A stretch of 64,000 nucleotides of DNA from Raillietiella orientalis (lineage: Eukaryota). The DNA lies in the NCBI GenBank assembly GCA_036172245.1, contig JAYWIR010000030.1, positions 1,488,001 through 1,552,000 on the forward strand, in the 5' to 3' direction. How positions within the stretch are numbered: position 1 is the stretch's first letter; each line of letters opens with the position of its first letter. The notes under the pieces are model-generated. The model was not told the origin of the DNA. It made no database searches and saw only the letters and a list, made by a program, of their open reading frames with translations. This document shows, piece after piece, positions 13,618 through 61,756 of this stretch. Made by a program: the position numbers and the translations under genes.

Positions 13618-13618
13618 T

Positions 13619-35370: not shown

Positions 35371-35899
35371 CAGCCAACAAACGGAAGAAATCCTTTTTCG
35401 AGCATGAGGTCTCAGAACGCTTCTTCAGGTATATATCGATCAACGAACCGATGCGGTGATGAAGATGTAAAGGAAAACATGCAGGGTTTGCTTCCGTTTT
35501 CTTCTTCTTCGTCTGTACCTTGTCGGTCTCGTACGCTGGACAGCGTTGAGATCTCTCGGAGGTGAGCCAAACGTCTTTCTGATATGACGAACGGAACACA
35601 TACATAGCGTCCTTTCGTTCCCTCGCCACGAACTGCAGAAGGGGTGCCATGCTGAATAGGATGTATCCAATGCCTCTTGGACGTTGGATGCATCCCATTC
35701 AATGCGATGATGGCGGTCAGAATTCCTTGATCGCGAGACTTTTCGGCATGAAGCAGCGTGCAGTTCTGGTGCGATTTCTTTTTCCGTACAAGAGTCACTT
35801 CCTTCTGGAAGAGACTGTTGAACCTCCGGGCATTCAGCTCAGCTCAGTCCTGAGATGCTGCACGCAAAAGCTCTGCTGAGGAACCCGAAAAGAGGCAGC

Positions 35900-37900: not shown

Positions 37901-37990
37901 TAGCATTTATTCGTCCGTACATCTACCAATACACTAGCTGCTTGTTCTCACCGGATAATTTGATGACTTCGTAAGGTGTTAAAAGTAGTG

Positions 37991-39495
37991 CACCCGGATA
38001 AAACGGGGCTATTATTTTTAAAATACAACATGATACGTTAAAATTAATTCTAGTCTTTTGTGCATTGCTTCAGTGAGAATACATGATTCTAGCGGTCCTT
38101 TTGCACTTGTCCTTTCTGACCCGCAGGCCGATGAGGTCCTCCCCACAGGCGAAGGGGGCGAGAAAACCGAAAAAAGAGAGAGAGAGAAAAAAAAAAAAAA
38201 AAACTAAAACGCCTGGAGCGACAAAGTTTACTGGGGTGGGGAGGAATGGGACGGGATCACAATTCGCCGGGAGGAGTCCTCTGCATCCGGTTTCGGATAC
38301 GGGCGAGTGTCGGTTGAACTGTCCGTAACCGGCTCCACGGGCATGTCTTCTCCATGTGGAGGACTGCTCAATGGATGGCATTCCGGCTACGATGACCTCT
38401 TCTCGATGCATTCCAATTCTTCAGTATTCCGTGTACGCAGCAGCTCTCTGCAGCACACGCGGCTGCTGGCAGGGCGTTCCACATCAGGAGGCGACGGAAA
38501 ATGTCTTTCGTGTCGCCCACCGGAATGTTCACAATCGACGAGAGTCGATCCCGCATGGGGAGGAGGGCGACACACTCGAAAAGTAGATGGTGGAAGGTTT
38601 CCCTTTCCCCTCACCCTGCACAATTGGCATCCACACTCCCTGATGTCTAGTGGAAGAGGCGTGCTCTGCACAGCAGTTCCCAATGGAGCGCTGGCAGCGC
38701 CGTCTCTTGCCATTCTAGGGGGAGAGTGCCATTGTGCCAATGCGTTGGGAGCCACTTCACCTCCTCCGGAGGTATGCCGAGTAGCTCGCCCCAGCACACA
38801 AGTCCGTTAGTCAGCAAGGGGGCGAAGGGGGTTGAGGAGTTTTTGCGGGTTGGTAGCGATCTCCCGTAGGCAATGACCAGAGCACCTGCCTCTACGAAGC
38901 CAAGAGAAGTCCACATCGCTCGAGCCGTTGATCTTTGACCACGCGGAAACGGACTACTGAAACCAGGTGGTGCAGTTCGCGGGGACACAGGAGATCCAGG
39001 TATTATCCCTCACCAGAGAAACCACGTCGCGCATGGTTTAGGCTGCGTTCGTCAGCAACAAGGATTGAGGTCAATCCGTTGTAGTTGATTGTTCTATTGG
39101 CGAGGAGACGTGTCGAGATGCACCACGGCGCAGTCCAGAAGGGCGAGTTTGCACATTTGGAGCTGGCGCTCCATGCGCTACATCGTAAGGAGACCGAGTC
39201 CACTGTCCTTGCGCGGAGAGCACAAGTCGTCAAGCCGGGCGCGGAAACTCTGATTGCCCCAAAGGGCTTCTCTTAGCAGGACCCGCGTCCTTGTCTTTAT
39301 CTGTGCTGGGGCGAGGCGAACAAAAAGTAGGGGCGAAGGGGAGGGGGGTCCGAAAAAGCGTTCCACACCGCGGCCCGTATTCCTACAAGTAAAACTTGCC
39401 GTTGTCGAACGTGCCGATCGCCAACTCCAACTTTTGGAGACGGTCGCACCACTCTTCTGCGGCGCGGAAGTCCCCTGACGGAACGCCAAGAAAGT
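37991..39495 (-). mobile_element. 5'-truncated non-LTR element in the left arm (mirror copy at about 58618-60122, +)
   Basis: DSGLGL, WGELLGIPPEEVKW and LHWE motifs. Terminal motif at 37991-38016. Confidence 0.8.
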
Positions 39496-42251
39496 GCAAT
39501 CTTAACGTAAATCACTCGTGGTGGTTGTCTGCTGAAGTCACAAAACTCCTTCAATTTTCAGAATGTCATTTCCCTTCTTCTCCATCACACCATCGCAGGG
39601 ATCAACGTTGTCTCACTTTGAAGAAGATGGATAAGAAATGGTAAAAGTCACAAACTTGCAGAAACCGCGGTCGCAACCTCCTCTGACCACAACTCAATCC
39701 TGTCGATGGAGCGAAAACAAATCTATTCCATGGATACACACACACACTCTCCGTCTGGAAAGGTAACTGCTTGCTTCTGGGCAGGCACGCACTATTCATG
39801 AAAGTTTCCTTTTGCGTACGTGAATGCAGGAATTGCGAATTCATTCCCAACGCGCAGATTGAGTATTGTGGCAGTTTCCGGGTGAATGCAGTCTTACCCT
39901 TTATCTGGACCACAGTCTACGAAAACCGATGCAAAATGCCAGCAGCGCTGTAAATTTGCAGAAGGACCTCAGAGCAGCAAACCTTGCAAAAGTGCGGAAG
40001 AAGGCGGTTTAGGGAAAGCGAACGTGGAAGACAAAGGCAACGTGAAAAGGAACACTGGCATCCTGGTGACGAACTGTGTACAGGGACATCACAAGTCCTA
40101 GGATTACGGCCACCTCGGAGGCATGATGCCTTCTTCGGATTGCTCCCGTACAAGATTGCACCGCATTGGCGTTACAATGCGCCAGCGGTGCCGTTTGTTT
40201 TACCAACTTGGTCGACAGCATGGAGAGTCAGTGATGCATAGTAACTACTCAACCTACTCATTTAATCACAGAACGAACGTGCACGAGCTCGAGGGATCAA
40301 CCGTGGTATCATTTCCCGTGACGAATCCGTCATGCAACAATCTCAGCTTCTCGTTCCGGATGAGCCCTTTGAAGATTCATGACGGTGAAATCACTGACGG
40401 AAAACAAAACAAAACAGAGCATCGGTGTACGTTCACTGCACAACGGCTCTCCTTGTATTATAACTTTTCGTTACCAGTTCATCCTTGCAATGCCCAGAGC
40501 TATACTGAATTCGTGACTGATTGAAAAGTGCTCTTTCCGAAGGAAGATGCTTGATCACCGGTATAAGTGATTTGTTTCGTAAGTGAATTCTTGCTGAAAA
40601 CCTCAGGTCAATGATGAAACTGGCAGATGCCAAGGAAGGGACGGCAATCGTTAGAATAGGAGGGAACGCTGTGCATTCGTGGCACCACGAGTGCACAGGG
40701 CACTTAAAGTCTCCGCGAACTCTTTTCAGTGCATCGAATGCTGCTGCAAACACCGCAGAGTGTGCGCACTCCTTATTCCTGAAAAAAAAAAAACACTCCG
40801 CCGCATGATGCAGTACACAGCAAACTTAGCAGCTTTCATTGTTTTACGAGAGGGAATGAAAGCTTTTTTCGGGGTTGCGTGAGGTTGGTGTGCGGCAAAC
40901 GCCGTGCGACCTCTTCGGATCCCACATCTTCTGTCAAAGAACAACAGGGAAGTTGCCAGCAGGGAACCTCGATCTTTAAAATCTTACCATAAAAGAAACG
41001 CCTTCTTAGGAAAATGTTCCTCCCGCCTCACACAGCACCTGTACAGATTTCCCTCATAGAGCAAGCGTTGTTATCCCAGCCGTCCACTTTTCAGGGTAAA
41101 TTGGCAGAACAGTTTTCCCCGTCTCCCAAGGCAACTCCCAAGGCGCTCAATCATCGAGCGACCAAACGAATGCATCCGGGGAATCTTCACTGGAAGCACC
41201 ATGAGAAAGCACCAGGCAGCCTCCCGCCACGTTTCCCTCATTCATGAGGCCACTTCGATGGCAGAAGATTCCCAACCAACCGCGAAAACCACGACCCGGA
41301 CGTTGGTTTCGTCAAATTCCATTGCTAACCTTCTTCTTACCATGCGTGGAAGGAAAACACATTTAAATTGTATTTCAATATATTTTCTGACGCACGTCGA
41401 TTACTCTCTCGACTGCAATGCATTTCAAAATTCCTGCAATCCATCCTTCTCCTGCCAACCCGTCGTGCGTCTGTACAGAACATACGTGAGCTTTCCGATT
41501 GCTCGTCCCTGCGTTTCCACGTCATAGCAACCCTTGCTCGAGAAAGGCGAAACGAATGCTCCCTAAACGCAACAGTGCCTCAGGGTTTGCACACATCGTC
41601 CTAATTGCAGTCCACTCGCAATAGGCAATTCGTTTCACTCCTTGATCCCACTTGCTCGCAATCAGCGCGCCTTTTTTCCCTTCCGTTCACACTCTGCGCT
41701 CTTCCCGAAAATCTGTTTAACCTGCTGACCGTGTCTTGTGTTCCAGATGCAGGTAGCTGTTGCCCCACAGTCGCATTTTGCCTCCTAATGGAATTTGGAC
41801 CAATTGCGATTCCTCGTAACCAGTCCTCGCGTCGCAGCTGTTCCGAGTCTTTCAAGCAGCAGCTCAGTGGACCCGTGCAAACATTGCACGTGCGCAATCG
41901 CTAGTGATCTCAGTGTGCCAACACTGCACACTGAGGGCATTAGCATTCCAGCAGTCCGTACGGCACGTGGGAAATCAATTTGAGCTCAAGTCAGTTGGAC
42001 CTCAGCAGCACGCTGCAGCAGTCATCAGTGTACAACAACATCGTTGGTGCTCAAGGTTGTTTCTCTCCTGAAATGTAGAGTGCAAAAACTCGGCAACTGT
42101 GGGAACACGAATTCAGTTTCCATAGGCATGAGGGCATCTTCAGCATCCACCTGATGTTTGCAAGAGCTGAATCTGTTTTTTTTTTTCAAAAAAAATTATA
42201 AAAGGATGCACTTTCCTAGGAACTGCGAGCCATTCCAGAAGAGCATCCTAG

Positions 42252-42731
42252 GCAGTAGGTATCGCATGGGGACTCCAAAACTCAAGTTGCAAAATACGAT
42301 TCACTGGTTATTCGAAATCACGGATGGCGTCTTTGGAAAGCGGAATCGGAAGCAAACGCTGCTAAGTACGGGTGCATATACGTTCAAGAGAAGCGGGAAT
42401 TCGAGATGTCCGATTTTCGCCAACGCCCACACAACTCTTCCTCACTTGGGATGGCACGAAGAGAACATCGGCAGAAGCGAAGCAGCGCGTCTCTCGTCTG
42501 CTGATGGGTATCGAAGCAAGCAAAGGAGAAAGGGTGGTCTTTCGGCGAGGTCACGTGAGTGTCTGCGGAGACCAAATTGCGCACGACCTTCTTTTTGCAA
42601 ACCATGGAAACATGGAATTGCTGGTATGGGTTTTCAGGAAGGGCGATTTTTTAACAACGGAAAACACCTATACGGTGAGCTTCCGTGTTCAGAAGAAGAA
42701 GCGAAATTCGATGAGAGGGCTCCTAAAATAA
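42252..42731 (+). pseudogene. Putative secreted beta-rich domain exon with an in-frame TAA (42363); mirror copy at about 55382-55861 (-)
   Basis: Frame AVGIAWGLQNSSCKIRFTG...KRC*VRVHIRSREAGIRDVRFSPTPTQLFLTWDG... The two arm-to-arm SNPs seen are synonymous in this frame (GTA/GTG, CTG/TTG). The C-x23-C spacing matches the mucin N-terminal domain. Confidence 0.35.
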
Positions 42732-44208
42732 GAGGGAACTATTAACATTAGCAGGGACGTTGATTCTGAAAATGAAGCATTCGTGCAGACACCCGAAAAC
42801 GACGTGCATTGCTGAGGATGCATTGCTCAGTGTACGTTTTCTTCCCGTCTGAAGCATCAGCAGCACCCCTTTTCGAGCTTGACGTGGCTCGAAGAATTTT
42901 CCCACATCTTCATGGAAGGGTGATCTTCGAATCCATCAGGATTGCCTAAACTAAATACGAAGCAGCAGACACTGTTAAAGAGAAACTCCATTAAAAACAG
43001 ACAGAAATGTTGTTGTTATTCATAAGGTGTTGTGTATTCTTCGCTCAAGTGTTGACCAAAGATGATTAGTTGTTTACAGATTAAAAAATAGAACATGCTG
43101 CCTTTGCCTTTGCAACTAGTGGGTTGAACACCTGTGTGCAAAGAGAAATCTGTGTTAAGCCCTCGTCCGTAACCCGCCAGGTACCAGTTCGTCTTCTGCC
43201 TACAACCCTTTAGTGAAACCTGCGGTTCCATCACCAAGCGACGCAGCATGATGTTTCCAAAGATTCAAATGGTAAGGAAGCCGTCTTGCGGTAGCGCCTC
43301 TCTCCTGCTAGGCAGTACGCCTTTCGTAGATGCTGTGAGACCCCTTCTATCGGTGCGGTTTTGCGAGGCCGACCATTCTCGAGAGAATGGAAGGCGATAC
43401 GCCGACGCTCTTTGCCGACTCATCCGATGTCCAGTTCTGTATTGCGGAGCTGCAAGCGCTCTTCACACAACCATGGAGGGAATCGAATGCTACCTCGAGT
43501 TTCCAGGGACGAGTTCTTCGAGATAAATAAGGAAATCGCCCTTTTTTGGCATGGTGGAAAGCACATCTGTAATTTAGAGAAACATCCGATATCGAGGACT
43601 CGTTTGAAAGCATCCCATGAACGTTTCGGTGCCATGGTAGAGCAAGGAGAATGCATCTGAGTCTGCGGACGGTCTCTGCCTCGCTTTGAGAACACCGTAT
43701 GCAACACGGCGGTGTCGCACACGATAACGGCTTTCGTTCTTGAAGTTCGTAGCAGATGAATCCGACTGGCAAATCCGCCGTCCTCTTTGCAGAGCAGTAG
43801 GATTAATCGTTCTTTGCAGTAGGCCCGCTACTATTGCCGCTCGAAGCACTTCAACTCCGATTTGAGGGCGATACGAGAGAAACACGTCAAACTTGAGAGA
43901 GAAGAATACTGCAGTTCTAGGATTAAGCTGCTGGAACTGAGTGTTTGGCATGGGAATCCCAAATTTACTCAGGACGGCGACAAAGATTCGACCGAGAGGA
44001 AATCGCTAAGCATCCCACCGTTTTCTTACGTGTGATGGAAGCCAAGTCACGCTATCGTAATGCTTGCGATTGTCGTTTTTCTTCTTCTTCTCCGGGATCC
44101 ATGCAATCGAGAAAGATGAGATAACAGCTAATGAGAATGGCTCCAATGTTAGTTGCCCTCGCTGTCCTGGGTCGCAATTCTTCCTTCCATTTGACAGACT
44201 GCCAAAGT

Positions 44209-44914
44209 ATGCTAATTCTGTTCTTCCAGGGGCTCCTTGCTGTGGTCCTCTCGCTGACGAGTGCCGTGTACACCGGAAGTGCGATAAAATCGCGCCAGCT
44301 TGGAGCAGACTTGGTATTCGGAAACTTCAGTGGACCTTGCGTAGTAACACTTCTTGTTCCAACTAAACAAGAAGGCATAGACGAAAAGTGCAAGTTGGAA
44401 TGGGGACCAGAGGTGACACCGACCCCGCAGAAGGAGGAGTGCAAAATTGGTGTCAAGGTATTGTATGAAAGCTCTTTCAAGAAACATGTTTTGCTCCCAA
44501 GGGTATTTCAGATCCTCAAAAAGTAATTGTTATCGTTCTTCCGGGTTTAGATGAATGCATCTGTTCGTTTTCGAAGGAAAAGAAGTAAGTGGCTTGCACG
44601 TTTCGGCACGGCAGCATCCACTTTTCTTCCTCGCGTCCGGCAACAGCCGATGCTCTTTGACATACGCGCACGTAACCGAAATCGCGGCTTTCTGTCCCAA
44701 TCACATCCGGAAGAAAGAGAGGATGTGGATGCGCGCATTTTCAGAAAGGCTGCGCATCATCTCGTTTTCACCAAAAATTTATCTCAGGTCTAGAGAAGAT
44801 GATATGGATATCTTTGAAGTGCAAACACCATTCAGTTTGTTTTGCATCTTCCCCCAAAATTCCATATGCTCGTTGCTGTTCTTTGCAGACGATGGCGGCA
44901 GCGTATACTTTTAA
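44209..44914 (+). CDS. Small secreted Cys-patterned protein, copy A (199 aa; exons 44209-44457, 44502-44584, 44647-44914)
   Basis: Signal-peptide-like MLILFFQGLLAVVLSLTSA. Introns GTATTG..CAAG (44 nt, phase 0) and GTAAGT..ACAG (62 nt, phase 2) give one continuous frame. Cys and WGP/FSPKI/VQTPFS motifs are conserved with copy B despite heavy nucleotide divergence. AATAAA lies at 44937. The true start could be in an upstream exon (ttcttccag at 44229 could be an acceptor). Confidence 0.7.
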
Positions 44915-45699
44915 TTTCTTTACCTTCATGGAATTAAATAAAGGCTTTGTTTTTGTGCAGATTCGCAGTTTGAGAAGGAGAGGAAGTTCTCCTAATTGGG
45001 ATGGGCCCATTCGAACCCACTCATTCAGGTCCATCGCATTCATCCCCAGTGGGGATCGAATAAAGCATTCCTGCTTCCTCTCTTCCCAGTAGACAGAGTG
45101 GATTTTGTTTGGAAAAGTGCGCTCGACATGGCGACCCCCCTTTCCTCATGAAGAGGGGGCAGATTCCCTGTGATTCTGGCGCTTGCAGCTTTTCGTGTTG
45201 CAAGCGCTGGCAAAAAATCGTTTCTCAAAAATGGGGAGCGCGATTCGAGTGGAATCCCACTTTTCGAATGATTCCTCCGCCTCCCTGACAACCTCGAGAA
45301 TCCCCGGAATGTGCAGCTTGTGCCTTGTAACGCGACTCCAAATCAAGGAACACCTCATCCAGCGCATATCGTACTGGAAGTAACGATCAGGATGAGATTT
45401 CAGGTGTTGTCCTGCTGACAAAGTCTTCGTGCTTCAGCTCGAGAGGGGATTTGCTTCCACGTTCAAGAAAGCATGTGGCTCTCTTTGTTCATCATTTTCT
45501 CTCTGAGAATGCTTTTCTGCTACGGACAAAGATAAACACAAACACTGAGGATTATTCCAGGGTTTCGAAAGCTGCAGGAAGATCCACAGGTGTTGTCTCA
45601 CCAGTGAGATGCAAGAAAGTCCGCATTTTGTCAACTGCTTGCCTTTGGATCTCTTCCGCATCAAAAGCAAGTTGTCGAAAATATGCAAAGTGCCTCCGG

Positions 45700-47900
45700 A
45701 AGGAGGAGGATGTCTTTCAGTAGAAGGCGAACGGACTGTGATGACAGCAAGTTGAGAAGAAGAGCCGACGTATGCGCACCGTCAGAAATGCAGCATTCAC
45801 AAGGGACCAGATTAAGGGAGACACTTGTGAGATGGAATGCACCGCTCCATCCGAATGGTGCGATGAGTGCATCCCATGGCATTCCTCATCCGGGTGACAC
45901 ACAGTGCCTGAAAGAAAAATGCTGCATGGTAACGGCAACGTGATGCAGCTCGGCACGTGATGCGATTTCAGGGTAACCGCAGCAAAAGGAATTTCAGTGA
46001 TGCTCGGAGACTTTCGAGGAGGGGAAATGAAAACGCGCTGCTCCTTGAAAAACGAGCAGAAAGGAGTTGTGGACGCGTGCTGGTGTCCTTCCACGAAAGC
46101 TTCGCGGGGCACCCCACTCTACGAAGCACGCTATCCCAGAAATAGAAAATATCCCATCGATGCACGGTTAAGAAAGCCCAGCGGCCCATTCCGCACCCAC
46201 CGCTCGCTCACGAACCACTCTGCCTTCATTGCTGACGCGCTGTTTTGACGAATTCCCATTTGTCAACAGCTGGCAATTCGCTGATTGAGGCATCTCGGCG
46301 ATTTGGATACGCTGCCTGCCTTTTTGATCTCTGCGTTCGGAGTTGGAATGCGGGGCTAGGAAGGAATGGGGATAGGAAACACACGGGGAGGTGCCAAAGA
46401 GATGCGCAACCAGGGGAATTTTCTGGGTATAGGAAGTCTTCCGGGGACAGTCTATCATTTCCCACAGCAAGCAGAGAGCGCAAACATTGCGTTTCTAGCT
46501 GGTCCGTGGCGTTGAGTTTTGCCCACGTCTGGGATGTTCCTCATTTCCTGGCACTCACCATTTCCTTCCTTCCGCCAGCTGGCGATCCAGTTGTGGTCCT
46601 GAGCTAAGACCGCCATCTCCCTCATCGGTGCAGTCTTAGGTGGTTCTCAACGAGGTGCTGAGCCAATTTCTCGCTCAGCCAAGATCCGGACCGTCAGGCA
46701 CCAAGGGGTGCTCGAAACCTTCGCAGCCAGGGCTACTTTTCGGGAGGTTTGGAGGTGACGCTGCATCCTTTCCATCGTCGAGTCCGGTGTCCCGAAGTGG
46801 AGCGCATCAGTCCTTCAGGCGAACTCGGTACTTCTGTGTGTCCCAGATGGCTTTTTGCAGAAGAAACTCGTTCCGCTTCTTTATACCATTGGAAGGGGCC
46901 GAATAAAAAGCAAGGCTCGGAGGATCGGGGGCACAGAAGTGTTCCAAATGGAACTCTGGCTGTGAGGAGAAGAGGGGGACCGAACGTGCTTTGCAGAAGG
47001 ACTGTGGAGTTCAGCGAGACTACAGCTCTTCCTCCAAGACGAGGTGAAGACCACTTCTCATGCTGACTCTGAGATGCTCAGCACTCAGGTTCGTTGCTCC
47101 GAGTTCCGTGTTTCGTGTTTGTGGTGTGAACGGTAGCAGTGTTTGCGTAGTTGAGGCGCGAGGAGACACCTTTAGGAATCCTCTGGGAAGAGAAGCTCCC
47201 CTGGGCTTTGGAAGTGAGGGATGCGTTTCACTCAAAATCTCTCATCATAGAAGAGAGGCTGTGGAGCCAGGCGGTCGTGGCGGGATCCTCAGCATCCCAG
47301 GTGGGACTCCCAGCGAACGAGGCCCGTGCACACGCACACACCCCACGATTCAAGGCAGGACTGCATTCTCCGCGACTCCGCTCATTCAAGGGTTGCAGAA
47401 CCTCAAGGTCGAAAGGGAAGAGTCTGTCGACCCCTTTTGGTCAAGAGGGAAGAGGGTCGCCGAGCTCACCTGAGAAGACACTTGTCTTGCCCAACGGCTA
47501 CTAAGGATCTTGGCCGCCGCCGAGCACCGCAGGGTCTTTAATGAGACGGAGAACTGTGAGACCGTGGTCCACCTCACAGGCATAACTGTCCAGGTGGCAG
47601 AGAAAGACTCTTTTTGAAACAATGCGCATGCTGTGGATTAAGCCCCAGTCCCTTCTCCACATTTGCGAGGGATGTTCAGCGCAGATCATCGACCAAGGGA
47701 GCGGGCTGCCCTATAGGTCACAAATACCAGGGGGAAACTTCGACCTGCAGTTCTCCGGCAAAAGGGAAATAGTGAGATCGTGCAAAGGCGGGTCACAAGG
47801 AGGTGCCACGACATCAGGTACCACAGATATGTGTTTAAAAGCTTTGCGAGACCTCTCCAAGGGGACGAACGGTTCTTCAGCACTTTCGAAACTTCCAAAA
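45700..47900 (+). mobile_element. Highly decayed non-LTR ORF2 (endonuclease to RT) running from the left arm into the spacer
   Basis: MLGDF...VDA...TNHSA (APE GDFN/SDH-like) at about 46.0-46.25 kb and SRQDCIL (RQGCPL-like) at about 47.35 kb. Confidence 0.45.
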
Positions 47901-48184
47901 AAAAAACTCGAAAAAAAAGAAAGGAAGCAACGAAAACAGACGTAGTGAAATAGGGCACGTCGAAGCGGCATGGCCCACAAGGCGAACCTGGCCACGTCTA
48001 CAGCCGCAAAAAGCAAAGAAAGAAAAAGGGGAAGACAGTTGGGATTCAGAGGGAAAAGGTGGGTCATGTCCTACCGGAGCTACCAGAATCTGTGGACTCA
48101 CCTGGGAGATCCCGAGAGAGGGTTCTGCCGAGAACGCCGACTGGCAGCGAAAAAAAGCCGGAAAGAGAAGCAGACCTCCTCCTG

Positions 48185-51150
48185 CACCCGGTCATCCGGG
48201 GTGTTTATTTGAAAATAAATACATTTCAAGTCATTTAGCAAGAAAAACAAAAAAAACACGCGAAGTTCACTGGAGACGGCTACCAGCTCGCAGGCCGGAT
48301 TCCAAGGAAGTCAGGAGCGAGAGGGAAGGGGCAATACAACAAAAAAAGGAAAGGGGACAGGATGAAGGTCTTTGGCTTTAGCTGCTCCTTTCTTCCTAAA
48401 ACTGGTGCTGAGTTCTGGTGATCCTCCTGGCGACCTCTTGCAGGTGAACGTAGCCATTCTCATCAAGACGGCTGCTATGCTGGTGACCTTCCTCTGCCAA
48501 CGGGACTCTCTCACAATGCGGACTGTCACCATGGTGAGGATGCAATCATGCCACCTGCTGCAAGCCCGCCTTGCGTGAAGAAGCACCACAGCAAATCCAA
48601 AGCGGTGCCCTCCGGGTGGCTGAACGCCGGAGCGAGTCTTAGACACATGTCACCCAGTATACTGCAGTCAGCACTGCCCTCAAACTCTTTGGCTATGACC
48701 ACCTCCGTAAACTAGGTGTCTGAGCTGATTGTACTGAAATTCCCAGTGCAAAAGCAGCAGAAAATCCCGTTTCCAATGCGGTGGGAAGATGGAGTTGTCC
48801 GCACACAGAGAAGGGACTGGGAGGTCTTCGGGAGGCACAACGAGCAGGTCGCAGGAACGGGAATCCCTCCTGCACCTTCCTGTAGACTGTATTGCACTCC
48901 GCACTCTGTGGTTGCGTCACGCAACGGCCTTTGAGGCATCAAAGAACAATCCCAGAGTAGTGTTGAATCGCCTCTTCATGCGCAATGCTCTTTCGCCAGC
49001 CGCCTCCCCAGCAGTTCTTTGCTGCCTACGAGGGATATTTACCCACAAACGGCGCTCTCGAACGTTTTGCAGCATCCATCGTACTCCTTCGCTTCTCTGG
49101 GCATGCGCAGGGGGTTCGGGGGCAAAGAAAACCTGTCTAAGGAACTGTGGTTCTGAAGCTCAAGTGCTTCTTTCCTCTCCAACAGGCTGTCGACGTTCCC
49201 TTGCAACTGGCGGAGCGATGCAGTTGTGCGCTCTGTCCTTGATGGATCCTCACACCTCGGATGATGATATTTTCGTGAAGGAGTCTTCGCTCTGGTCCCC
49301 TCCGGAGCTCGATTTCCCGCTTGAAAACCCTTCACAATTCAGCCGGAGGTGGCCCAGTGGCCGAGGGATTGTGGAGGTCTAGAGCTACGCGAGAGAAGGA
49401 CGGCACGACGCCATCTACTTCGCCCTGAGCTTCATGAGGGCGGTAGCTAGATGGCCCCACCTGGGAAATACTCGGGTGGAACTAGCCGAAATCCTAGAAA
49501 GGATGAGAGGACGCCCTCCAGTGCCCGGTGACCCTTTCTCTAACCTCTTAATTTTTGTATAAGCTTTTTTTTGGGGGGGAGGGGGGTCCGCCCCTCCTCC
49601 TCTGCTGCGGAGACAAACCTCACCGGTCTACATAACGGTACTCGGCAGGTTCCGAGCATTTTCGGACAATGTAAAGCCGATGGCACGACACATGCATGCT
49701 TACTTTTTACAATAAACATCCGTGCGTGATCTGGTGACAAACCGAGCAGGTCGCTTCACCGAAGAAGTCCTTTCGTCCAGGAACGAGGAGTGACACCATC
49801 TAGATCAACCTGCTTGGTTTCCAGCCGCCATGGAGTTTTTTGACTCCTGCCATTCTCCGGTTAGCTGCTCTGAGAGCAGACAGCCCTCCGACAAGGGACT
49901 GCTACGTCCACTTCTACAGGAGATCTTTCAGCGGGTTGCATAGGAGTTGCCGCAGCAGACCAATTTCTTCTGGACGCACTTCCAAAGTGGCCATCCAGGA
50001 CTCCAGTGCATCCTGCTTCCAGGTATTGCAGTTTTTTGGCCGGCAGGAGATCCACAAGTGAGTTTGCAGCAGTGAGGACAGATGCCTCGGGGGCCAGCCG
50101 AAACAAGGCATCCTATGACGCCTGCGCGGCAGCAGCGCAAGCAGTGCTTGGCGTGCATCGCATCGCCGAAGGATGCGTGGTGCCGGAGCACACCAGGGAG
50201 AGTTCCTCAATTTGCCACAGAGTGCCAGAAGTCGGGACTGCAGAAGGGGAACGAGATCCGCAGACAGAACGAGACAGAAGTCTGCACCCCCATATGGATC
50301 GTTCGTCTGTCTGCCCAAGCCGGAATCCTAGCGCGGCGCCACAAGTCTTTCAGCCGGCTGCCGAACCAGCATGCCTTGTTCGCCGCAACGTCGGAAACAC
50401 GCGAGGCGAACAGCCAGGCGCCTGCGTGGTCAAACGCCGGCGCTCTCCTGTTATCCACGCCGCACCGGAAATCGCGACGGCGGAACCCATCCGCGGCAGT
50501 CGTGTCGGCAGCACCGTTCGTGCCCCGCGCTTTCGGATGTGCACGCTGTTTCGGTGATCCTCTGTGTGTGAAGTCAGCGTAGTGTGAAAAACGTTGGTGA
50601 TGCCCTGGGTCTGGTGCCGGAAGACATCGCTGTGACTGCTCACGGAGGAGGGGCGGAAACCTCCCTTCTCATGGCATTGGAGCCAGTGGAGGGTGCGTCC
50701 CGCCAAGAATCCTCCTCGCTGAACAGGGAAGCTGTGAAGTCGGAGGGTTTCCAGGGCTTCTCTGGCAGCTCACACTCAACTCCAGGACTACAAGGTCCAC
50801 GTATATAACCCTATATTCCCTCCCTGAGTTACAAGGTAGGCAGCATAAACGTGAGATCTGTTGAATCGTTCCGCGAACTCGTCGCCAATTTTGATACCTT
50901 TTTCTTGACCGATTTGGATGCCTAGTGTCTTTTTTCTCTCAGAAGCTGCATAAACTCCAGATTGCAAAAGATGACCGTGCAAGACTCTCTGTCTTGTGAA
51001 GCAGATAGGTCGCAGAGCTGACCTGCAGAGATGATGCTCCTGATGAGACGCTGCTGAGAAGCTGATCACGATCGAAGGGACACGTTGTTCCTGCTGATGG
51101 GAGACCGCTCCGCGGTCGTCCACCTCACCGAGATGGCAGTAAGGACAAGG
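48185..51150 (-). mobile_element. Decayed non-LTR element in the palindrome spacer
   Basis: LCGKLRNSPWCAP, ALLALLPRRRHR and LLLLHW motifs. Terminal motif at 48185-48209. The 5' extent is approximate. Confidence 0.6.
49380..49736 (+). mobile_element. Short 3' fragment of a non-LTR element nested in opposite orientation
   Basis: ARWPHLGN is shared with the 16.0 kb copy, and the 3' region resembles the reverse complement of 12100-12200. It ends AATAAACATCCGTGCGTGATCTGGTG. Confidence 0.6.
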
Positions 51151-51425
51151 ATAACGGAGGACTACGCCATCCGGTAGTTACAGCGGTCAACGCGCTGCAT
51201 GCGCCGTCGAACCGAACTTGCTTCCTCGTATTCAGGAACGTTTGTAAGCAGTCCCTACGAGTGTGTATGAAGTACCTGTTGCAGCGGACATTTTCTTGTC
51301 ATTTCGTTTTACTTCCGAAGACAAGTCGAAAGATGTTTCAAGAGCATTTGCAGAAAACAAAAAGAATTTTTAACTAAAGCTTTCTATTGCACACGTACAT
51401 ATGTATGTATATGTTCCGAAACATG

Positions 51426-54400
51426 CCCTGGTTGCGCTTTTCTTTGGCACCTCCCCCTGTGCTTCCGATCCCCATCCCTTCCTAGCCCCCGCATTCCAGC
51501 TCCGAACGCAGAGATCAAAAAGGCAGGCAGCGTATCCAAATCGCCGAGATGCCTCAATCAGCGAATTGCCAGCTGTTGACAAATGGGAATTCGTCAAAAC
51601 AGCGCGTCAGCAATGAAGGCAGGGTGGTTCGTGAGCGAGCGGTGGGTGCGGAATGGGCCGCTGGGCTTTCTTAACCGTGCATCGATGGGATATTTTCTAT
51701 TTCTGGGATAGCGTGCTTCGTAGAGTGGGGTGCCCCGCGAAGCTTTCGTGGAAGGACACCAGCACGCGTCCACAACTCCTTTCTGCTCGTTTTTCAAGGA
51801 GCAGCGCGTTTTCATTTCCCCTCCTCGAAAGTCTCCGAGCATCACTGAAATTCCTTTTGCTGCGGTTACCCTGAAATCGCATCACGTGCCGAGCTGCATC
51901 ACGTTGCCGTTACCATGCAGCATTTTTCTTTCAGGCACTGTGTGTCACCCGGATGAGGAATGCCATGGGATGCACTCATCGCACCATTCGGATGGAGCGG
52001 TGCATTCCATCTCACAAGTGTCTCCCTTAATCTGGTCCCTTGTGAATGCTGCATTTCTGACGGTGCGCATACGTCGGCTCTTCTTCTCAACTTGCTGTCA
52101 TCACAGTCCGTTCGCCTTCTACTGAAAGACATCCTCCTCCTTCCGGAGGCACTTTGCATATTTTCGACAACTTGCTTTTGATGCGGAAGAGATCCAAAGG
52201 CAAGCAGTTGACAAAATGCGGACTTTCTTGCATCTCACTGGTGAGACAACACCTGTGGATCTTCCTGCAGCTTTCGAAACCCTGGAATAATCCTCAGTGT
52301 TTGTGTTTATCTTTGTCCGTAGCAGAAAAGCATTCTCAGAGAGAAAATGATGAACAAAGAGAGCCACATGCTTTCTTGAACGTGGAAGCAAATCCCCTCT
52401 CGAGCTGAAGCACGAAGACTTTGTCAGCAGGACAACACCTGAAATCTCATCCTGATCGTTACTTCCAGTACGATATGCGCTGGATGAGGTGTTCCTTGAT
52501 TTGGAGTCGCGTTACAAGGCACAAGCTGCACATTCCGGGGATTCTCGAGGTTGTCAGGGAGGCGGAGGAATCATTCGAAAAGTGGGATTCCACTCGAATC
52601 GCGCTCCCCATTTTTGAGAAACGATTTTTTGCCAGCGCTTGCAACACGAAAAGCTGCAAGCGCCAGAATCACAGGGAATCTGCCCCCTCTTCATGAGGAA
52701 AGGGGGGTCGCCATGTCGAGCGCACTTTTCCAAACAAAATCCACTCTGTCTACTGGGAAGAGAGGAAGCAGGAATGCTTTATTCGATCCCCACTGGGGAT
52801 GAATGCGATGGACCTGAATGAGTGGGTTCGAATGGGCCCATCCCAATTAGGAGAACTTCCTCTCCTTCTCAAACTGCGAATCTGCACAAAAACAAAGCCT
52901 TTATTCAAATCCATGAAGGCAAAGAAATTAGTTTTTACTGGTATATTTTGGATAGAATTCTAACCAGCAGTAGCTATCTTTGTAGAAGGCGCAAAAAACA
53001 CTGAATGGTGTTTGCACCGTAAAGGTGTCGGGATCATCTGTATTGGACCTGAGATGAATTTTTGGTGAAAAGGTGATGTTGGATTCGCAGTTTGATGCAG
53101 ACACGTTAGAAATTCATTTTGTTTTCGATGTTTGAATTCTATCAACGCACGAAATCACTCCGTGAGGTAGATTTCTGCTTGAGCTACAGAGTTGCTTTTG
53201 TAATTCTGCGGAAGCCACAGACACAAAGAAATTGCTGGTGGCTTGGATCTATAACCGCCAGCGTGCGAGAAGATTCAGCATCTTTCGAAAAAGATGGCAG
53301 AGGTCGAGCAGATTTTTCACCATTGAGTATGGGAGGGAAGGTCGGGTCGGTGACGCTCGAGATGCGCAGCCTTTCTGAAAATGCGCGCATCCACATCCTC
53401 TCTTTCTTCCGGATGTGAATGGGACAGAAAGCCGCGATTTCGGTTACGTGCGCGTATGTCAAGGAGCATCGGCTGTTGCCGGACGCGAGGAAGAAAAGTG
53501 GATGCTGCCGTGCCGAAACGTGCAAGCCACTTACGTGACTTTGTTCGAAATAGTGCAGTCGCATTTCTTCACATGTTGGGTAATCTCAACAACTACTTTT
53601 TCGGAGTCTCCTGAAAAACTCTTGAGAGAAAAAAATGTTTTTTCAAAGTGCTTTCATACAATACCTTGGCACTAATTTTGCACTTTTGGTTAGTTTCGAG
53701 TGGTTGCAAATCTGGCCCCCATCCCAACTTGCACACATCTAGATCTGAATATGCAGGCTCAAGTGCTACTACGCAAGGTCCACTGAAGTTCCCGAATACC
53801 AAGTCTGCTCCGAACTGGCGCGATTTTATCGCACTTCCGGTGTACACGGCACTCGTGAGCGAGAGGACCACAGCAAGGAGCCCCTGGAAGAACAGAATTA
53901 GCATACTTTGGCAGTCTGTCAAATGGAAGGAAGAATTGCGACCCAGGACAGCGAGGGCAACTAACATTGGAGCCATTCTCATTAGCTGTTATCTCATCTT
54001 TCTCGATTGCATGGATCCCGGAGAAGAAGAAGAAAAACGACAATCGCAAGCATTACGATAGCGTGACTTGGCTTCCATCACACGTAAGAAAACGGTGGGA
54101 TGCTTAGCGATTTCCTCTCGGTCGAATCTTTGTCGCCGTCCTGAGTAAATTTGGGATTCCCATGCCAAACACTCAGTTCCAGCAGCTTAATCCTAGAACT
54201 GCAGTATTCTTCTCTCTCAAGTTTGACGTGTTTCTCTCGTATCGCCCTCAAATCGGAGTTGAAGTGCTTCGAGCGGCAATAGTAGCGGGCCTACTGCAAA
54301 GAACGATTAATCCTACTGCTCTGCAAAGAGGACGGCGGATTTGCCAGTCGGATTCATCTGCTACGAACTTCAAGAACGAAAGCCGTTATCGTGTGCGACA

Positions 54401-57400
54401 CCGCCGTGTTGCATACGGTGTTCTCAAAGCGAGGCAGAGACCGTCCGCAGACTCAGATGCATTCTCCTTGCTCTACCATGGCACCGAAACGTTCATGGGA
54501 TGCTTTCAAACGAGTCCTCGATATCGGATGTTTCTCTAAATTACAGATGTGCTTTCCACCATGCCAAAAAAGGGCGATTTCCTTATTTATCTCGAAGAAC
54601 TCGTCCCTGGAAACTCGAGGTAGCATTCGATTCCCTCCATGGTTGTGTGAAGAGCGCTTGCAGCTCCGCAATACAGAACTGGACATCGGATGAGTCGGCA
54701 AAGAGCGTCGGCGTATCGCCTTCCATTCTCTCGAGAATGGTCGGCCTCGCAAAACCGCACCGATAGAAGGGGTCTCACAGCATCTACGAAAGGCGTACTG
54801 CCTAGCAGGAGAGAGGCGCTACCGCAAGACGGCTTCCTTACCATTTGAATCTTTGGAAACATCATGCTGCGTCGCTTGGTGATGGAACCGCAGGTTTCAC
54901 TAAAGGGTTGTAGGCAGAAGACGAACTGGTACCTGGCGGGTTACGGACGAGGGCTTAACACAGATTTCTCTTTGCACACAGGTGTTCAACCCACTAGTTG
55001 CAAAGGCAAAGGCAGCATGTTCTATTTTTTAATCTGTAAACAACTAATCATCTTTGGTCAACACTTGAGCGAAGAATACACAACACCTTATGAATAACAA
55101 CAACATTTCTGTCTGTTTTTAATGGAGTTTTTCTTTAACAGTGTCTGCTGCTTCGTATTTAGTTTAGGCAATCCTGATGGATTCGAAGATCACCCTTCCA
55201 TGAAGATGTGGGAAAATTCTTCGAGCCACGTCAAGCTCGAAAAGGGGTGCTGCTGATGCTTCAGACGGGAAGAAAACGTACACTGAGCAATGCATCCTCA
55301 GCAATGCACGTCGTTTTCGGGTGTCTGCACGAATGCTTCATTTTCAGAATCAACGTCCCTGCTAATGTTAATAGTTCCCTCTTATTTTAGGAGCCCTCTC
55401 ATCGAATTTCGCTTCTTCTTCTGAACACGGAAGCTCACCGTATAGGTGTTTTCCGTTGTTAAAAAATCGCCCTTCCTGAAAACCCATACCAGCAATTCCA
55501 TGTTTCCATGGTTTGCAAAAAGAAGGTCGTGCGCAATTTGGTCTCCGCAGACACTCACGTGACCTCGCCGAAAGACCACCCTTTCTCCTTTGCTTGCTTC
55601 GATACCCATCAACAGACGAGAGACGCGCTGCTTCGCTTCTGCCGATGTTCTCTTCGTGCCATCCCAAGTGAGGAAGAGTTGTGTGGGCGTTGGCGAAAAT
55701 CGGACATCTCGAATTCCCGCTTCTCTTGAACGTATATGCACCCGCACTTAGCAGCGTTTGCTTCCGATTCCGCTTTCCAAAGACGCCATCCGTGATTTCG
55801 AATAACCAGTGAATCGTATTTTGCAACTTGAGTTTTGGAGTCCCCATGCGATACCTACTGCCTAGGATGCTCTTCTGGAATGGCTCGCAGTTCCTAGGAA
55901 AGTGCATCCTTTTATAATTTTTTTTGAAAAAAAAAAACAGATTCAGCTCTTGCAAACATCAGGTGGATGCTGAAGATGCCCTCATGCCTATGGAAACTGA
56001 ATTCGTGTTCCCACAGTTGCCGAGTTTTTGCACTCTACATTTCAGGAGAGAAACAACCTTGAGCACCAACGATGTTGTTGTACACTGATGACTGCTGCAG
56101 CGTGCTGCTGAGGTCCAACTGACTTGAGCTCAAATTGATTTCCCACGTGCCGTACGGACTGCTGGAATGCTAATGCCCTCAGTGTGCAGTGTTGGCACAC
56201 TGAGATCACTAGCGATTGCGCACGTGCAATGTTTGCACGGGTCCACTGAGCTGCTGCTTGAAAGACTCGGAACAGCTGCGACGCGAGGACTGGTTACGAG
56301 GAATCGCAATTGGTCCAAATTCCATTAGGAGGCAAAATGCGACTGTGGGGCAACAGCTACCTGCATCTGGAACACAAGACACGGTCAGCAGGTTAAACAG
56401 ATTTTCGGGAAGAGCGCAGAGTGTGAACGGAAGGGAAAAAAGGCGCGCTGATTGCGAGCAAGTGGGATCAAGGAGTGAAACGAATTGCCTATTGCGAGTG
56501 GACTGCAATTAGGACGATGTGTGCAAACCCTGAGGCACTGTTGCGTTTAGGGAGCATTCGTTTCGCCTTTCTCGAGCAAGGGTTGCTATGACGTGGAAAC
56601 GCAGGGACGAGCAATCGGAAAGCTCACGTATGTTCTGTACAGACGCACGACGGGTTGGCAGGAGAAGGATGGATTGCAGGAATTTTGAAATGCATTGCAG
56701 TCGAGAGAGTAATCGACGTGCGTCAGAAAATATATTGAAATACAATTTAAATGTGTTTTCCTTCCACGCATGGTAAGAAGAAGGTTAGCAATGGAATTTG
56801 ACGAAACCAACGTCCGGGTCGTGGTTTTCGCGGTTGGTTGGGAATCTTCTGCCATCGAAGTGGCCTCATGAATGAGGGAAACGGGGCGGGAAGCTGCCTG
56901 GTGCTTTCTCATGGTGCTTCCAGTGAAGATTCCCCGGATGCATTCGTTTGGTCGCTGGATGATTGAGCGCCTTGGGAGTTGCCTTGGGAGACGGGGAAAA
57001 CTGTTCTGCCAATTTACCCTGAAAAGTGGACGGCTGGGATAACAACGCTTGCTCTATGAGGGAAATCTGTACAGGTGCTGTGTGAGGCGGGAGGAACATT
57101 TTCCTAAGAAGGCGTTTCTTTTATGGTAAGATTTTAAAGATCGAGGTTCCCTGCTGGCAACTTCCCTGTTGTTCTTTGACAGAAGATGTGGGATCCGAAG
57201 AGGTCGCACGGCGTTTGCCGCACACCAACCTCACGCAACCCCGAAAAAAGCTTTCATTCCCTCTCGTAAAACAATGAAAGCTGCTAAGTTTGCTGTGTAC
57301 TGCATCATGCGGCGGAGTGTTTTTTTTTTTTCAGGAATAAGGAGTGCGCACACTCTGCGGTGTTTGCAGCAGCATTCGATGCACTGAAAAGAGTTCGCGG

Positions 57401-60400
57401 AGACTTTAAGTGCCCTGTGCACTCGTGGTGCCACGAATGCACAGCGTTCCTTCCTATTCTAACGATTGCCGTCCCTTCCTTGGCATCTGCCAGTTTCATC
57501 ATTGACCTGAGGTTTTCAGCAAGAATTCACTTACGAAACAAATCACTTATACCGGTGATCCAGCATCTTCCTTCGGAAAGAGCACTTTTCAATCAGTCAC
57601 GAATTCAGTATAGCTCTGGGCGTTGCAAGGATGAACTGGTAACGAAAAGTTATAATACAAGGAGAGCCGTTGTGCAGTGAACGTACACCGATGCTCTGTT
57701 TTGTTTTGTTTTCCGTCAGTGATTTCACCGTCATGAATCTTCAAAGGGCTCATCCGGAACGAGAAGCTGAGATTGTTGCATGACGGATTCGTCACGGGAA
57801 ATGATACCACGGTTGATCCCTCGAGCTCGTGCACGTTCGTTCTGTGATTAAATGAGTAGGTTGAGTAGTTACTATGCATCACTGACTCTCCATGCTGTCG
57901 ACCAAGTTGGTAAAACAAACGGCACCGCTGGCGCATTGTAACGCCAATGCGGTGCAATCTTGTACGGGAGCAATCCGAAGAAGGCATCATGCCTCCGAGG
58001 TGGCCGTAATCCTAGGACTTGTGATGTCCCTGTACACAGTTCGTCACCAGGATGCCAGTGTTCCTTTTCACGTTGCCTTTGTCTTCCACGTTCGCTTTCC
58101 CTAAACCGCCTTCTTCCGCACTTTTGCAAGGTTTGCTGCTCTGAGGTCCTTCTGCAAATTTACAGCGCTGCTGGCATTTTGCATCGGTTTTCGTAGACTG
58201 TGGTCCAGATAAAGGGTAAGACTGCATTCACCCGGAAACTGCCACAATACTCAATCTGCGCGTTGGGAATGAATTCGCAATTCCTGCATTCACGTACGCA
58301 AAAGGAAACTTTCATGAATAGTGCGTGCCTGCCCAGAAGCAAGCAGTTACCTTTCCAGACGGAGAGTGTGTGTGTGTATCCATGGAATAGATTTGTTTTC
58401 GCTCCATCGACAGGATTGAGTTGTGGTCAGAGGAGGTTGCGACCGCGGTTTCTGCAAGTTTGTGACTTTTACCATTTCTTATCCATCTTCTTCAAAGTGA
58501 GACAACGTTGATCCCTGCGATGGTGTGATGGAGAAGAAGGGAAATGACATCCTGAAAATTGAAGGAGTTTTGTGACTTCAGCAGACAACCACCACGAGTG
58601 ATTTACGTTAAGATTGCACTTTCTTGGTGTTCCGTCAGGGGACTTCCGCGCCGCAGAAGAGTGGTGCGACCGTCTCCAAAAGGTGGAGTTGGCGATCGGC
58701 ACGTTCGACAACGGCAAGTTTTACTTGTAGGAATACGGGCCGCGGTGTGGAACGCTTTTTCGGACCCCCCTCCCCTTCGCCCCTACTTTTTGTTCGCCTC
58801 GCCCCAGCACAGATAAAGACAAGGACGCGGGTCCTGCTAAGAGAAGCCCTTTGGGGCAATCAGAGTTTCCGCGCCCGGCTTGACGACTTGTGCTCTCCGC
58901 GCAAGGACAGTGGACTCGGTCTCCTTACGATGTAGCGCATGGAGCGCCAGCTCCAAATGTGCAAACTCGCCCTTCTGGACTGCGCCGTGGTGCATCTCGA
59001 CACGTCTCCTCGCCAATAGAACAATCAACTACAACGGATTGACCTCAATCCTTGTTGCTGACGAACGCAGCCTAAACCATGCGCGACGTGGTTTCTCTGG
59101 TGAGGGATAATACCTGGATCTCCTGTGTCCCCGCGAACTGCACCACCTGGTTTCAGTAGTCCGTTTCCGCGTGGTCAAAGATCAACGGCTCGAGCGATGT
59201 GGACTTCTCTTGGCTTCGTAGAGGCAGGTGCTCTGGTCATTGCCTACGGGAGATCGCTACCAACCCGCAAAAACTCCTCAACCCCCTTCGCCCCCTTGCT
59301 GACTAACGGACTTGTGTGCTGGGGCGAGCTACTCGGCATACCTCCGGAGGAGGTGAAGTGGCTCCCAACGCATTGGCACAATGGCACTCTCCCCCTAGAA
59401 TGGCAAGAGACGGCGCTGCCAGCGCTCCATTGGGAACTGCTGTGCAGAGCACGTTTCTTCCACTAGACATCAGGGAGTGTGGATGCCAATTGTGCAGGGT
59501 GAGGGGAAAGGGAAACCTTCCACCATCTACTTTTCGAGTGTGTCGCCCTTCTCCCCATGCGGGATCGACTCTCGTCGATTGTGAACATTCCGGTGGGCGA
59601 CACGAAAGACATTTTCCGTCGCCTCCTGATGTGGAACGCCCTGCCAGCAGCCGCGTGTGCTGCAGAGAGCTGCTGCGTACACGGAATACTGGAGAATTGG
59701 AATGCATCGAGAAGAGGTCATCGGAGCCGGAATGCCATCCATTGAGCAGTCCTCCACATGGAGAAGGCATGCCCGTGGAGCCGGTTACGGACAGTTCAAC
59801 CGACACTTGCCCGTATCCGAAACCGGATGCAGAGGACTCCTCCAGGCGAATTGTGATCCCGTCCCATTCCTCCCCACCCCAGTAAACTTTGTCGCTCCAG
59901 GCGTTTTAGTTTTTTTTTTTTTTTTTCTCTCTCTCTCTTTTTTCGGTTTTCTCGCCCCCTTCGCCTGTGGGGAGGACCTCATCGGCCTGCGGGTCAGAAA
60001 GGACAAGTGCAAAAGGACCGCTAGAATCATGTATTCTCACTGAAGCAATGCACAAAAGACTAGAATTAATTTTAACGTATCATGTTGTATTTTAAAAATA
60101 ATAGCCCCGTTTTATCCGGGTGCACTACTTTTAACACCTTACGAAGTCATCAAATTATCCGGTGAGAACAAGCAGCTAGTGTATTGGTAGATGTACGGAC
60201 GAATAAATGCTAATATCTTCGTTGCCTTTCAGAGGAGTCTCAGATCTTCCAAGAAATGATTCCATCCATCTCGCCAATGGGAGGTGGAAGAGGCACGGTT
60301 GCTCAGATACGACTCATGAGCGCACTGCTGGTTGTCTTGTGTCTTCCGAATGGGATTCATCCTGCAGTTTGAGGGATCCGAGCTTTGACGGCCTTTTCTG

Positions 60401-61756
60401 TGAAGGTGTTTCGGCCTCAAGTAAGCGAATCTGATCTTTCATCCTCCTCTTTTCATACAGCTGCAGTTACTTTGCGTCTCCAGTCCTTCCTCTGTAAAGA
60501 AAGCTGTCTTACGAATTGGGAAAAGAATCGCCCACTTGGAACAAGAGCAGCTCTGCCGCTTGATGTTTCAGGAGAAGCAACGAGATGCTTGGATACCGGT
60601 AGCAGCATTACTTCGGGCGTTTCCAAATATCTTGGCTGCTTTGTGCGTCACCTTTTTGCGGGAACGACCACTATGTTTTTTGTGGGAACAGTCGGAAACG
60701 GTGTAACGAGTCCGTAACCTACTTGGATGCTTGCACTCGTCCTTAGTTTTCCGGGAGAACGCTTTACTCAGGTGCTTAGACTTTTGGTTTTCGTGCAATC
60801 CAGTCCTGCTACGGAGGTTGTCTTCTCGCTGTCGCAGACGCATGGGAAATCCGTGACGAAACAGCCTCCGTTGAGTTTTCCTCGCTCTTTTGATTTCATA
60901 CGCTGTCTGTGAACTGTCTCCGAAAAGCAGGGCGAAACTGAGCAGAGGAAAGCAAGGAACGGTGATTGGAAAGTGCATGCGTGAATTTTTTCTCGGGGAT
61001 CACAGACGAAAAGGAGAACTGAGATCGGCATATCAGAAAATTTTGTCCACTGTAGCCTGGACAGAAAGGCTGAACGTGGAGAGCTCTTGTGGACAAACCA
61101 GGAATGCCTTCAGAGCATCCCAACGCTACTAACCGTGAAGTTTTCTGTCCACTATTCGCATCGTACAAAGAAGGATTCCTAGCGTTGCTGCCTGGCTGCC
61201 GATACAGGATGCGGGGGGAATTCTGCTTCCTGCTCCGACAACTTGCCTCGATCCTGGAAGACTACTCTTGGTTTTCCCACCGCCCAATAACTTGGAATCC
61301 TGGAGTCTGGAGTTGCGATTACATCTGCCATCGGTCCACTTCCATACGCTCCCTCCACAAGCTTCCACCGGGAGAAATTCCCGCAAGATTCGAAGAAGTC
61401 TGTCCGTCTGGCCGCCACACCCCTTGCCGCAGAGCATTCTGCCCTGAGGTGAAATAACGATGGTTGCCTATCGGCAAGATAGCCCATCTTCTGCTCGCTT
61501 GCAGGACGGACCAAACTCCGAGGAGGCTGGAAGCCGAGTGAGCTGATGGAGACCGGCATTCCATATCGTAGGAAGGGACCATTTCGGTGGATCGGACCTT
61601 TGAATGCGTCCCCCGAAGGAAATCTCTAGCCCTCCTCCGTGCGTAAACACTTCCTCGTTCCCCCTGAAGGGGAAATGGGGTGTCCTGCTCTTTCTGCACT
61701 GACTTATCCTGCGTCTGGTTTCCAGGGAGTTGAATCCCGAAACTGCTTAAAGTGCG
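51426..61756 (-). repeat. Right arm of the palindrome
   Basis: Reverse complement of 36357-46415. It is about 270 bp longer because of extra sequence at ~53.07-53.36 kb. Confidence 0.98.
53184..53904 (-). CDS. Small secreted Cys-patterned protein, copy B (204 aa; exons 53904-53665, 53620-53535, 53472-53184)
   Basis: Same signal peptide and the same intron positions and lengths as copy A. The mature region is diverged (CVVALEPAYSDLDVCKLGWGP...CKISAK|SFSGDSEKVVVEITQHVKKCDCTISNKV). It has an extra CxC-containing segment, then TAG at 53184. A segment homologous to copy A's C-terminus follows out of frame (about 53100-52928), with AATAAA at 52905-52900. Confidence 0.62.

Follow-up and report, generated by a model that had tools for sequence, protein, structure and literature searches.

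A 64,000-nt stretch of contig JAYWIR010000030.1 of the Raillietiella orientalis assembly (hereafter the window; positions are counted from its first letter) contains a palindrome with a pair of putative three-exon genes, one in each of two arms of about 10 kb. The arms are 99.7% identical over most of their length, and the segments that would encode the mature proteins differ at roughly 35% of their nucleotides. This divergence is confined to the blocks that the gene model calls exons, and within them the cysteines (Cys) of the two predicted products are kept at fixed spacing. We tentatively favour the explanation that recurrent gene conversion between the arms keeps them alike, with the mature-protein coding segments escaping it.

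Anatomy of the palindrome and its diverged patch

A repeat search combined with blastn delineated two inverted arms, more than 99% identical, around a unique spacer (Table 1). The outer 8,024 nt of the arms aligned without gaps and with 33 mismatches, the arm body (7,848 nt) showed 22 mismatches (99.7% identity), and the inner 1,444 nt (44912–46355) showed five. Near-identical arms with no net insertion or deletion (indel) over approximately 8 kb, as the original prediction had described them, were therefore confirmed. Toward both ends, the similarity decayed, the outermost 32 nt being 81% identical and the innermost 60 nt 90% identical. Mismatches in the arm body were clustered (coefficient of variation of the gaps between them 1.40 vs. 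0.94 expected, P = 0.015), with a transition-to-transversion ratio (ts:tv) of 15:7. No similarity was found between the two halves of the spacer, and no Pfam domain was found in it. As a separate observation, parts of the spacer within 48562–50054 are 80–82% like 63147–63800, a dispersed repeat that lies just outside the right arm in the opposite orientation; this repeat might have had a role in the formation of the palindrome.

The sole diverged patch of the arms spans approximately 44256–44936 and consists of three diverged blocks separated by conserved ones. These blocks fit a three-exon gene, one per arm, with both copies directed towards the spacer. Between the two copies, identity was 97.1% in codons 1–46 of exon 1 (138 nt) and 69% in codons 47–83 (111 nt in the left copy, 102 nt in the right), then 86% in the 44 nt of intron 1 and 65% in exon 2. 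It was 98.8% in the 5′ 173 nt of intron 2 and 90% in its 3′ 30 nt, fell to 65% in exon 3, and reached 99.7% in the 3′ flank of the gene (1,441 nt). Low divergence of introns and flanks is thus combined with high divergence of exons, intron 1 and the last 30 nt of intron 2 being intermediate. At the intron 2 donor (GTAAGT) and at the aligned TAA stops, the border is sharp to the single nucleotide, and high arm identity starts again exactly at the stop codon, where the inner repeat begins (44912). From codon 47 to the end, 116 of the 303 aligned nucleotides differ. Two claims of the original prediction are upheld by these data: the mature-protein exons have diverged with their flanks and introns kept (65–69% in the exon blocks vs. 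99.7% in the arm body), and the limits of the divergence coincide with those of the exons. This agreement is nearly exact to the nucleotide once the gene model is revised as described below, which makes the pattern sharper than first described.

An error of assembly or polishing could imitate this anatomy, if two haplotypes of one locus had been joined in inverted orientation or if a real repeat had been over-homogenised; the gene would then be a single polymorphic locus under balancing selection. The arm divergence of 0.3–0.4% is within the range of heterozygosity, and exon-limited old alleles in a recombining background would give an identical pattern. However, the two arms are bordered by different unique outer flanks with no homology found past the outer arm ends, the 5-kb spacer is unique, and the region contains no N. 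Fold-back artefacts normally lack a spacer, and the decay of identity at the arm edges is not expected from a mis-join. We consider an artefact of this kind improbable.

Alternatively, a mobile element of about 10 kb could recently have inserted twice, in opposite orientation, with different alleles of the gene as its cargo; the arms would then be these two insertions. Transposon remnants are abundant in the region, and the arm ends are defined. However, no Pfam transposon domain, including transposase and reverse transcriptase, was detected among the open reading frames (ORFs) of the arms that were scanned (stop-to-stop frames of at least 110 amino acids (aa), plus those of 66–109 aa within 29000–46500). 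In addition, the arm ends decay gradually and have no sharp conserved termini, the window holds no further copy of such an element, and the exon-limited divergence would be left unexplained, which makes this origin very unlikely. The same scan qualifies the dead transposons that had been noticed in the arms: one dispersed-repeat remnant is indeed present in each arm, and accounts for 8 of the 22 arm-body mismatches, but none of the scanned ORFs carries a transposon domain.

Gene models and evidence for coding

Left and right exons measure 249/240, 83/86 and 127/121 nt, and the differences of 9, 3 and 6 nt are each a multiple of three. The splice signals, GTATTG...AAG for intron 1 and GTAAGT...TCTCAG for intron 2, are common to both copies, and the TAA stops of the two copies align (44912–44914 and 52930–52928). 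The start codons are those proposed originally, at 44209 and 53904, and these two ATGs correspond to each other; the peptides quoted in that proposal are likewise correct translations of the sequence. As read from the sequence, the left start codon at 44209 is ambiguous, with additional in-frame ATGs upstream at 44131, 44137 and 44146.

The intron 1 acceptor at 44501/44502 is the sole one that preserves the frame in both copies, and reading through the second donor leads to an immediate stop. For intron 2, the original prediction had proposed the junction 44584/44647, probably in error. Its acceptor, 44646/44647, keeps the frame in the left copy only, within the open frame 44555–44914; in the right copy, the equivalent acceptor leads the frame through a 283-nt insertion into a stop, and the conserved C-terminal Cys pair is lost. 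We preferred the acceptor 44787/44788 (TCTCAG in both copies) for this reason: it brings the third diverged block into frame in both copies, together with the two conserved Cys of that block and the aligned stops. It is probably the correct one, and 44646/44647 is kept as an alternative for the left copy. The revised model yields predicted products of 152 aa (left) and 148 aa (right) in place of the 199 aa first suggested. Inspection of the reading phase also points to 44647–44724 as a phase-compatible candidate for an extra exon.

The 283-nt segment, an insertion or deletion in intron 2 that only the right copy contains, has no other copy in the window. Separately, we considered a model without intron 1, in which the ORFs would end at the aligned stops 44526 and 53593. 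It was rejected since exons 2 and 3 would be non-coding, and yet their frame and Cys are kept.

Table 1. Coordinates of the palindrome and of the two predicted gene copies within the window.
Feature	Position	Strand	Details
Left exon 1	44209..44457	+	83 codons; signal-peptide-like N-terminus; conserved to codon 46, hypervariable from codon 47
Left intron 1	44458..44501	+	44 nt, GTATTG...CCCAAG
Left exon 2	44502..44584	+	83 nt; conserved CxC
Left intron 2 (revised model)	44585..44787	+	203 nt, GTAAGT...TCTCAG
Left exon 3	44788..44914	+	TAA stop 44912–44914; conserved C-x7-C
AATAAA, left copy	44937..44942	+	22 nt past the stop; candidate poly(A) signal
Right exon 1	53665..53904	−	80 codons
Right intron 1	53621..53664	−	44 nt, GTATTG...CTCAAG
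Right exon 2	53535..53620	−	86 nt
Right intron 2	53049..53534	−	486 nt, GTAAGT...TCTCAG
Right-copy-only 283-nt insertion or deletion	53079..53361	−	within intron 2
Right exon 3	52928..53048	−	TAA stop 52930–52928
AATAAA, right copy	52900..52905	−	22 nt past the stop
Left arm of inverted repeat	36329..46415	.	99.7% identity to the right arm outside the gene
Right arm	51426..61784 (61784–51426, −)	.	reverse complement of the left arm; repeat search and blastn
Unique spacer	46416..51425	.	5,010 nt, between the arms
Dispersed-repeat remnant in left arm	38191..38985	.	mirror copy 59128–59922; 77–79% identity to 20131–21077

One indication that these blocks encode protein comes from their Cys. All seven are kept between the copies at equal spacing, six of six in the part from codon 47 to the end, where 40 of 107 alignment columns are identical; their retention in the diverged exons agrees with the original prediction. 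The predicted product thus combines a signal peptide, judged by eye, with a conserved Cys scaffold and hypervariable loops, and it is probably secreted and disulfide-bonded. We simulated the divergence by placing the same 116 differences at random in 20,000 runs. Retention of all six Cys was rare (P = 0.0003), as were the absence of a stop (P = 0.022) and replacements as mild as those observed (P = 0.016). Of the six possible frames of exons 2 and 3, five are interrupted in at least one copy, and the sense frame alone is free of stops in both. We regard it as quite probable that the patch is, or recently was, a protein-coding gene.

Several observations weigh against this conclusion. Because the proposed frame served as the guide for the amino-acid alignment, the simulation is biased towards it. 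The dinucleotide TpA is depleted in the window, with an observed/expected ratio of 0.49 that stays within 0.46–0.57 everywhere, coding or not (0.80–0.92 for CpG). Stops are therefore rare, at 3.0% per codon, with 7.8% of 101-codon windows open by chance, and ORFs of 100–340 codons occur in all six frames of the window; an open frame is therefore a poor indicator of a gene in this genome. Over exon 1 and the adjoining upstream sequence, an antisense frame is also open in both copies (44052–44507 (−), 151 codons; 53615–54061 (+), 148 codons). No family matched this frame, which probably results from the scarcity of stops in the sequence.

The patch might, on these grounds, be a decaying pseudogene pair or a fast-mutating or recombining non-coding stretch, with its frames open by chance. 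Apart from the genome-wide rarity of stops and the antisense ORF of ~150 codons, an odd number of Cys, a dN/dS ratio of ~1 and the lack of any homologue, Pfam family or structure match would suit a non-functional sequence. Such a sequence is not expected to keep all its Cys at fixed spacing across segments that are otherwise unalignable, nor to show three exon length differences that are all multiples of three. Nor would it explain the splice sites, aligned stops and AATAAA motifs kept in both copies, or a divergence limited to the very blocks that this frame calls exons. Overall, a loss or lack of function appears improbable.

Relatives of the gene were sought with single exons as queries, and this scope applies to all the homology searches for this gene. 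No protein homologue of exon 1 near it in length was found. A HMMER search with exon 1 over 1.84 billion representative proteins returned two matches, both to multi-repeat proteins and judged spurious, and a protein Atlas search with the same exon gave no usable match. In metagenomes, the exon 1 protein produced 545 pattern matches, none of which was confirmed, and an exact 24-nt pattern had no matches. The one entry retrieved from the PDB with exon 1 was a designed protein (E = 0.007) without a passing stretch, a negligible match. In Pfam, neither copy of exon 1 matched a family, and right exon 2 gave only a sub-threshold chance match. The window holds no third copy or paralogue beyond the pair. 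At the level of exon searches, the predicted gene is an orphan, without a match to a described protein family or fold.

A proposed gene conversion that the exons escape

The sequence itself shows how the palindrome is built, that its divergence is restricted to exons and that Cys are constrained at the protein level; conversion and selection, as well as the secretion, expression and splicing of the products, are what we infer. In the scenario that we favour, with some reserve, the palindrome of ~10 kb is a true one, and recurrent arm-to-arm gene conversion would hold its arms near-identical. Each arm would carry one copy of a three-exon gene for an orphan protein of ~150 aa with seven conserved Cys. 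From the promoter region to codon 46, in the longer intron and in the 3′ flank, conversion would homogenise the two copies; it would skip the mature-protein coding segments, which stayed or became ~35% different. Two causes, not mutually exclusive, could produce this escape: selection for two different proteins may eliminate convertants, and exon mismatches may halt heteroduplex extension, so that conversion tracts end at exon borders. The 173-nt part of intron 2 would be long enough for conversion by itself, and the 44-nt intron 1, at an intermediate 86% identity, would be too short.

Two features, the lower identity toward both arm ends and the clustered mismatches, argue for an older, converting repeat rather than a fresh duplication, as edge decay is expected where conversion rarely reaches the edges of the arms. 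These indirect signs (81% and 90% at the arm ends; P = 0.015 for clustering) support one half of the original prediction, namely that an old inverted duplication is homogenised by conversion. They do not extend to the other half, selection on amino-acid change. From codon 47 to the end, the Nei–Gojobori method applied to the two sequences gave pN of 0.379, pS of 0.396, ω of 0.94 and dS of ~0.56, and synonymous sites of the exons were ~100 times more diverged than the flanks. Synonymous and replacement sites have diverged to the same degree, without any excess of amino-acid change. An enrichment for such changes, the lack of which the original prediction had named as refuting it, was not observed, and this part of the prediction is at best unsupported.

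This result is the first of several that count against conversion with selected escape, because an ω of 0.94 leaves positive selection without demonstration. Exon identity has a bimodal distribution: segments at approximately random identity adjoin perfectly matching runs of 18, 11 and 11 nt, which are longer than chance would give (P = 0.005). The ts:tv is 52:64 in the exons vs. 15:7 in the arms. Both features fit a replacement of segments as well as they fit old divergence. Finally, the 283-nt indel survives in an intron 2 that is otherwise 99% identical, and frequent conversion should have removed it.

These same features lend weight to a different history, in which a recent inverted duplication (~0.3% divergence) was followed by the replacement of exon segments in one copy, through micro-conversion from family members elsewhere or through a segment switch like that termed ASSET. 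The exons would then be expected to form mosaics of identical islands and segments at near-random identity, as they do. A ts:tv near saturation in the exons, a dS equal to dN and an indel left unconverted would follow too, and a precedent exists for highly similar introns next to “distinctly different” exon segments, as described for ASSET (PMC2474615). However, the edge decay of both arms and the clustered mismatches suggest that the repeat is older and still undergoes conversion. The window lacks a third copy, none of the protein or metagenome searches returned a relative, and no known mechanism replaces exon segments and yet spares a 44-nt intron. Segment replacement after a recent duplication is unlikely in our judgement.

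A more radical proposal is a eukaryotic process directed specifically at coding segments, which it would diversify by switching exon segments or by targeted mutation, sparing even the 44-nt intron. It would act on a recognition or effector protein, the two forms of which would be “heterozygous in cis” in a gene-converting palindrome. We regard this as a decidedly improbable proposal; if it were true, the palindrome would be a device that combines identical regulation with two different ligand surfaces. An adenine-directed pattern, as produced by diversity-generating retroelements, is absent from the diverged patch: mismatches fall on all four bases in both copies (row sums 32/21/35/28). The patch contains no tandem repeats either, the only array in the window being located at 24132–28825.

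Under the preferred conversion scenario, the divergence belongs to a known kind, unusually sharp here and set in a palindrome and an orphan gene. In duplicates under gene conversion, a “peak of divergence” has been described, with opsin introns homogenised and exons that differ (PMC3924837). The model of Teshima and Innan and the human red/green opsin genes share with the present pair the homogenised introns and flanks and the narrow divergence peaks over coding sequence (PMC3924837). Where a few key codons differ in those systems, all mature-protein coding sequence (~105 codons) differs here at 35% of nucleotides. The contrast is ~100-fold, splice sites and the stop codon mark its borders, and the genes lie in palindrome arms and not in tandem. 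Unlike the selected peak of the opsin type, the pair has an ω of 0.94 and no demonstrated selection.

Mammalian sex-chromosome palindromes resemble the structure in their inverted arms of at least 10 kb, identity above 99%, unique spacer and gene pair, as reported for them (PMC8600007, PMC8327919, bioRxiv 10.1101/800185). Their arm genes are reportedly homogenised along with the arms, whereas here the exons alone escape. The present palindrome also differs in its 44-nt introns and shows no sign of a sex chromosome.

A third comparison concerns ASSET, proposed for snake three-finger toxins (PMC2474615), and other secreted toxin genes under accelerated evolution, conotoxins among them. The likeness lies in a near-identical signal-peptide region and introns, a fixed Cys framework, unalignable inter-Cys loops and a dS raised together with dN. 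By contrast, the gene studied here showed no sequence or family relation to any toxin in the searches with single exons, and two copies are present in the window. In the literature, we found nothing pertinent on a palindrome or inverted duplication with diverged effector genes.

If both arms and their transcripts are real, the locus would provide a compact natural experiment on the balance between conversion and divergence. A contrast of ~100-fold within 700 nt, resolved to splice sites, would make it possible to measure how short a conversion tract can be and how strong selection or mismatch barriers are. If it holds true, the orphan family of small predicted-secreted Cys proteins would also be a candidate source of effectors, toxins or recognition molecules from a poorly sampled eukaryote. 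Should the locus turn out to be no more than an artefact of assembly, or a duplication of recent date with ectopic exchange, its interest would be local.

Surroundings of the palindrome

The window has a G+C content of ~51% and few recognisable genes, and it contains retrotransposon remnants. A Pfam scan of 141 long and 94 shorter ORFs revealed only reverse-transcriptase fragments and one sub-threshold ZER1-like match. The largest feature outside the palindrome is the ORF 23465–28963 (−), at least 1,832 aa long and composed almost wholly of Ser/Thr/Pro/Gly-rich repeats. It overlaps a tandem array (24132–28825) of 30.6 copies of a 156-nt unit with 96% identity and a strong GC skew. The predicted product resembles a mucin-type protein of the surface or wall. 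The array is also open in further frames on both of its strands, among them a plus-strand frame of 1,860 aa.

Remnants of retrotransposons of the type without long terminal repeats comprise two RVT_1 fragments, 15124–15720 (−) and 17228–17824 (−), which are 75% alike. An endonuclease-like N-terminal motif was seen by eye at ~13600–13753 (+). When the reverse-transcriptase ORF was used as a query, its nearest relative was one protein at 71% identity, and one match from a frog was at 30%. The Atlas clusters of the 71% relative were most often of diatom origin, a weak lead on which no conclusion here rests. Dispersed repeats also form inverted pairs, 4355–4657 with 19603–19904 (88%) and 7393–7587 with 20425–20619 (77%). 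Finally, an isolated 110-nt segment at 5412–5521 (−), far from any ribosomal DNA unit, matches positions 3021–3145 of the eukaryotic large-subunit ribosomal RNA model (54 bits), and this fragment may have been captured by a retroelement.

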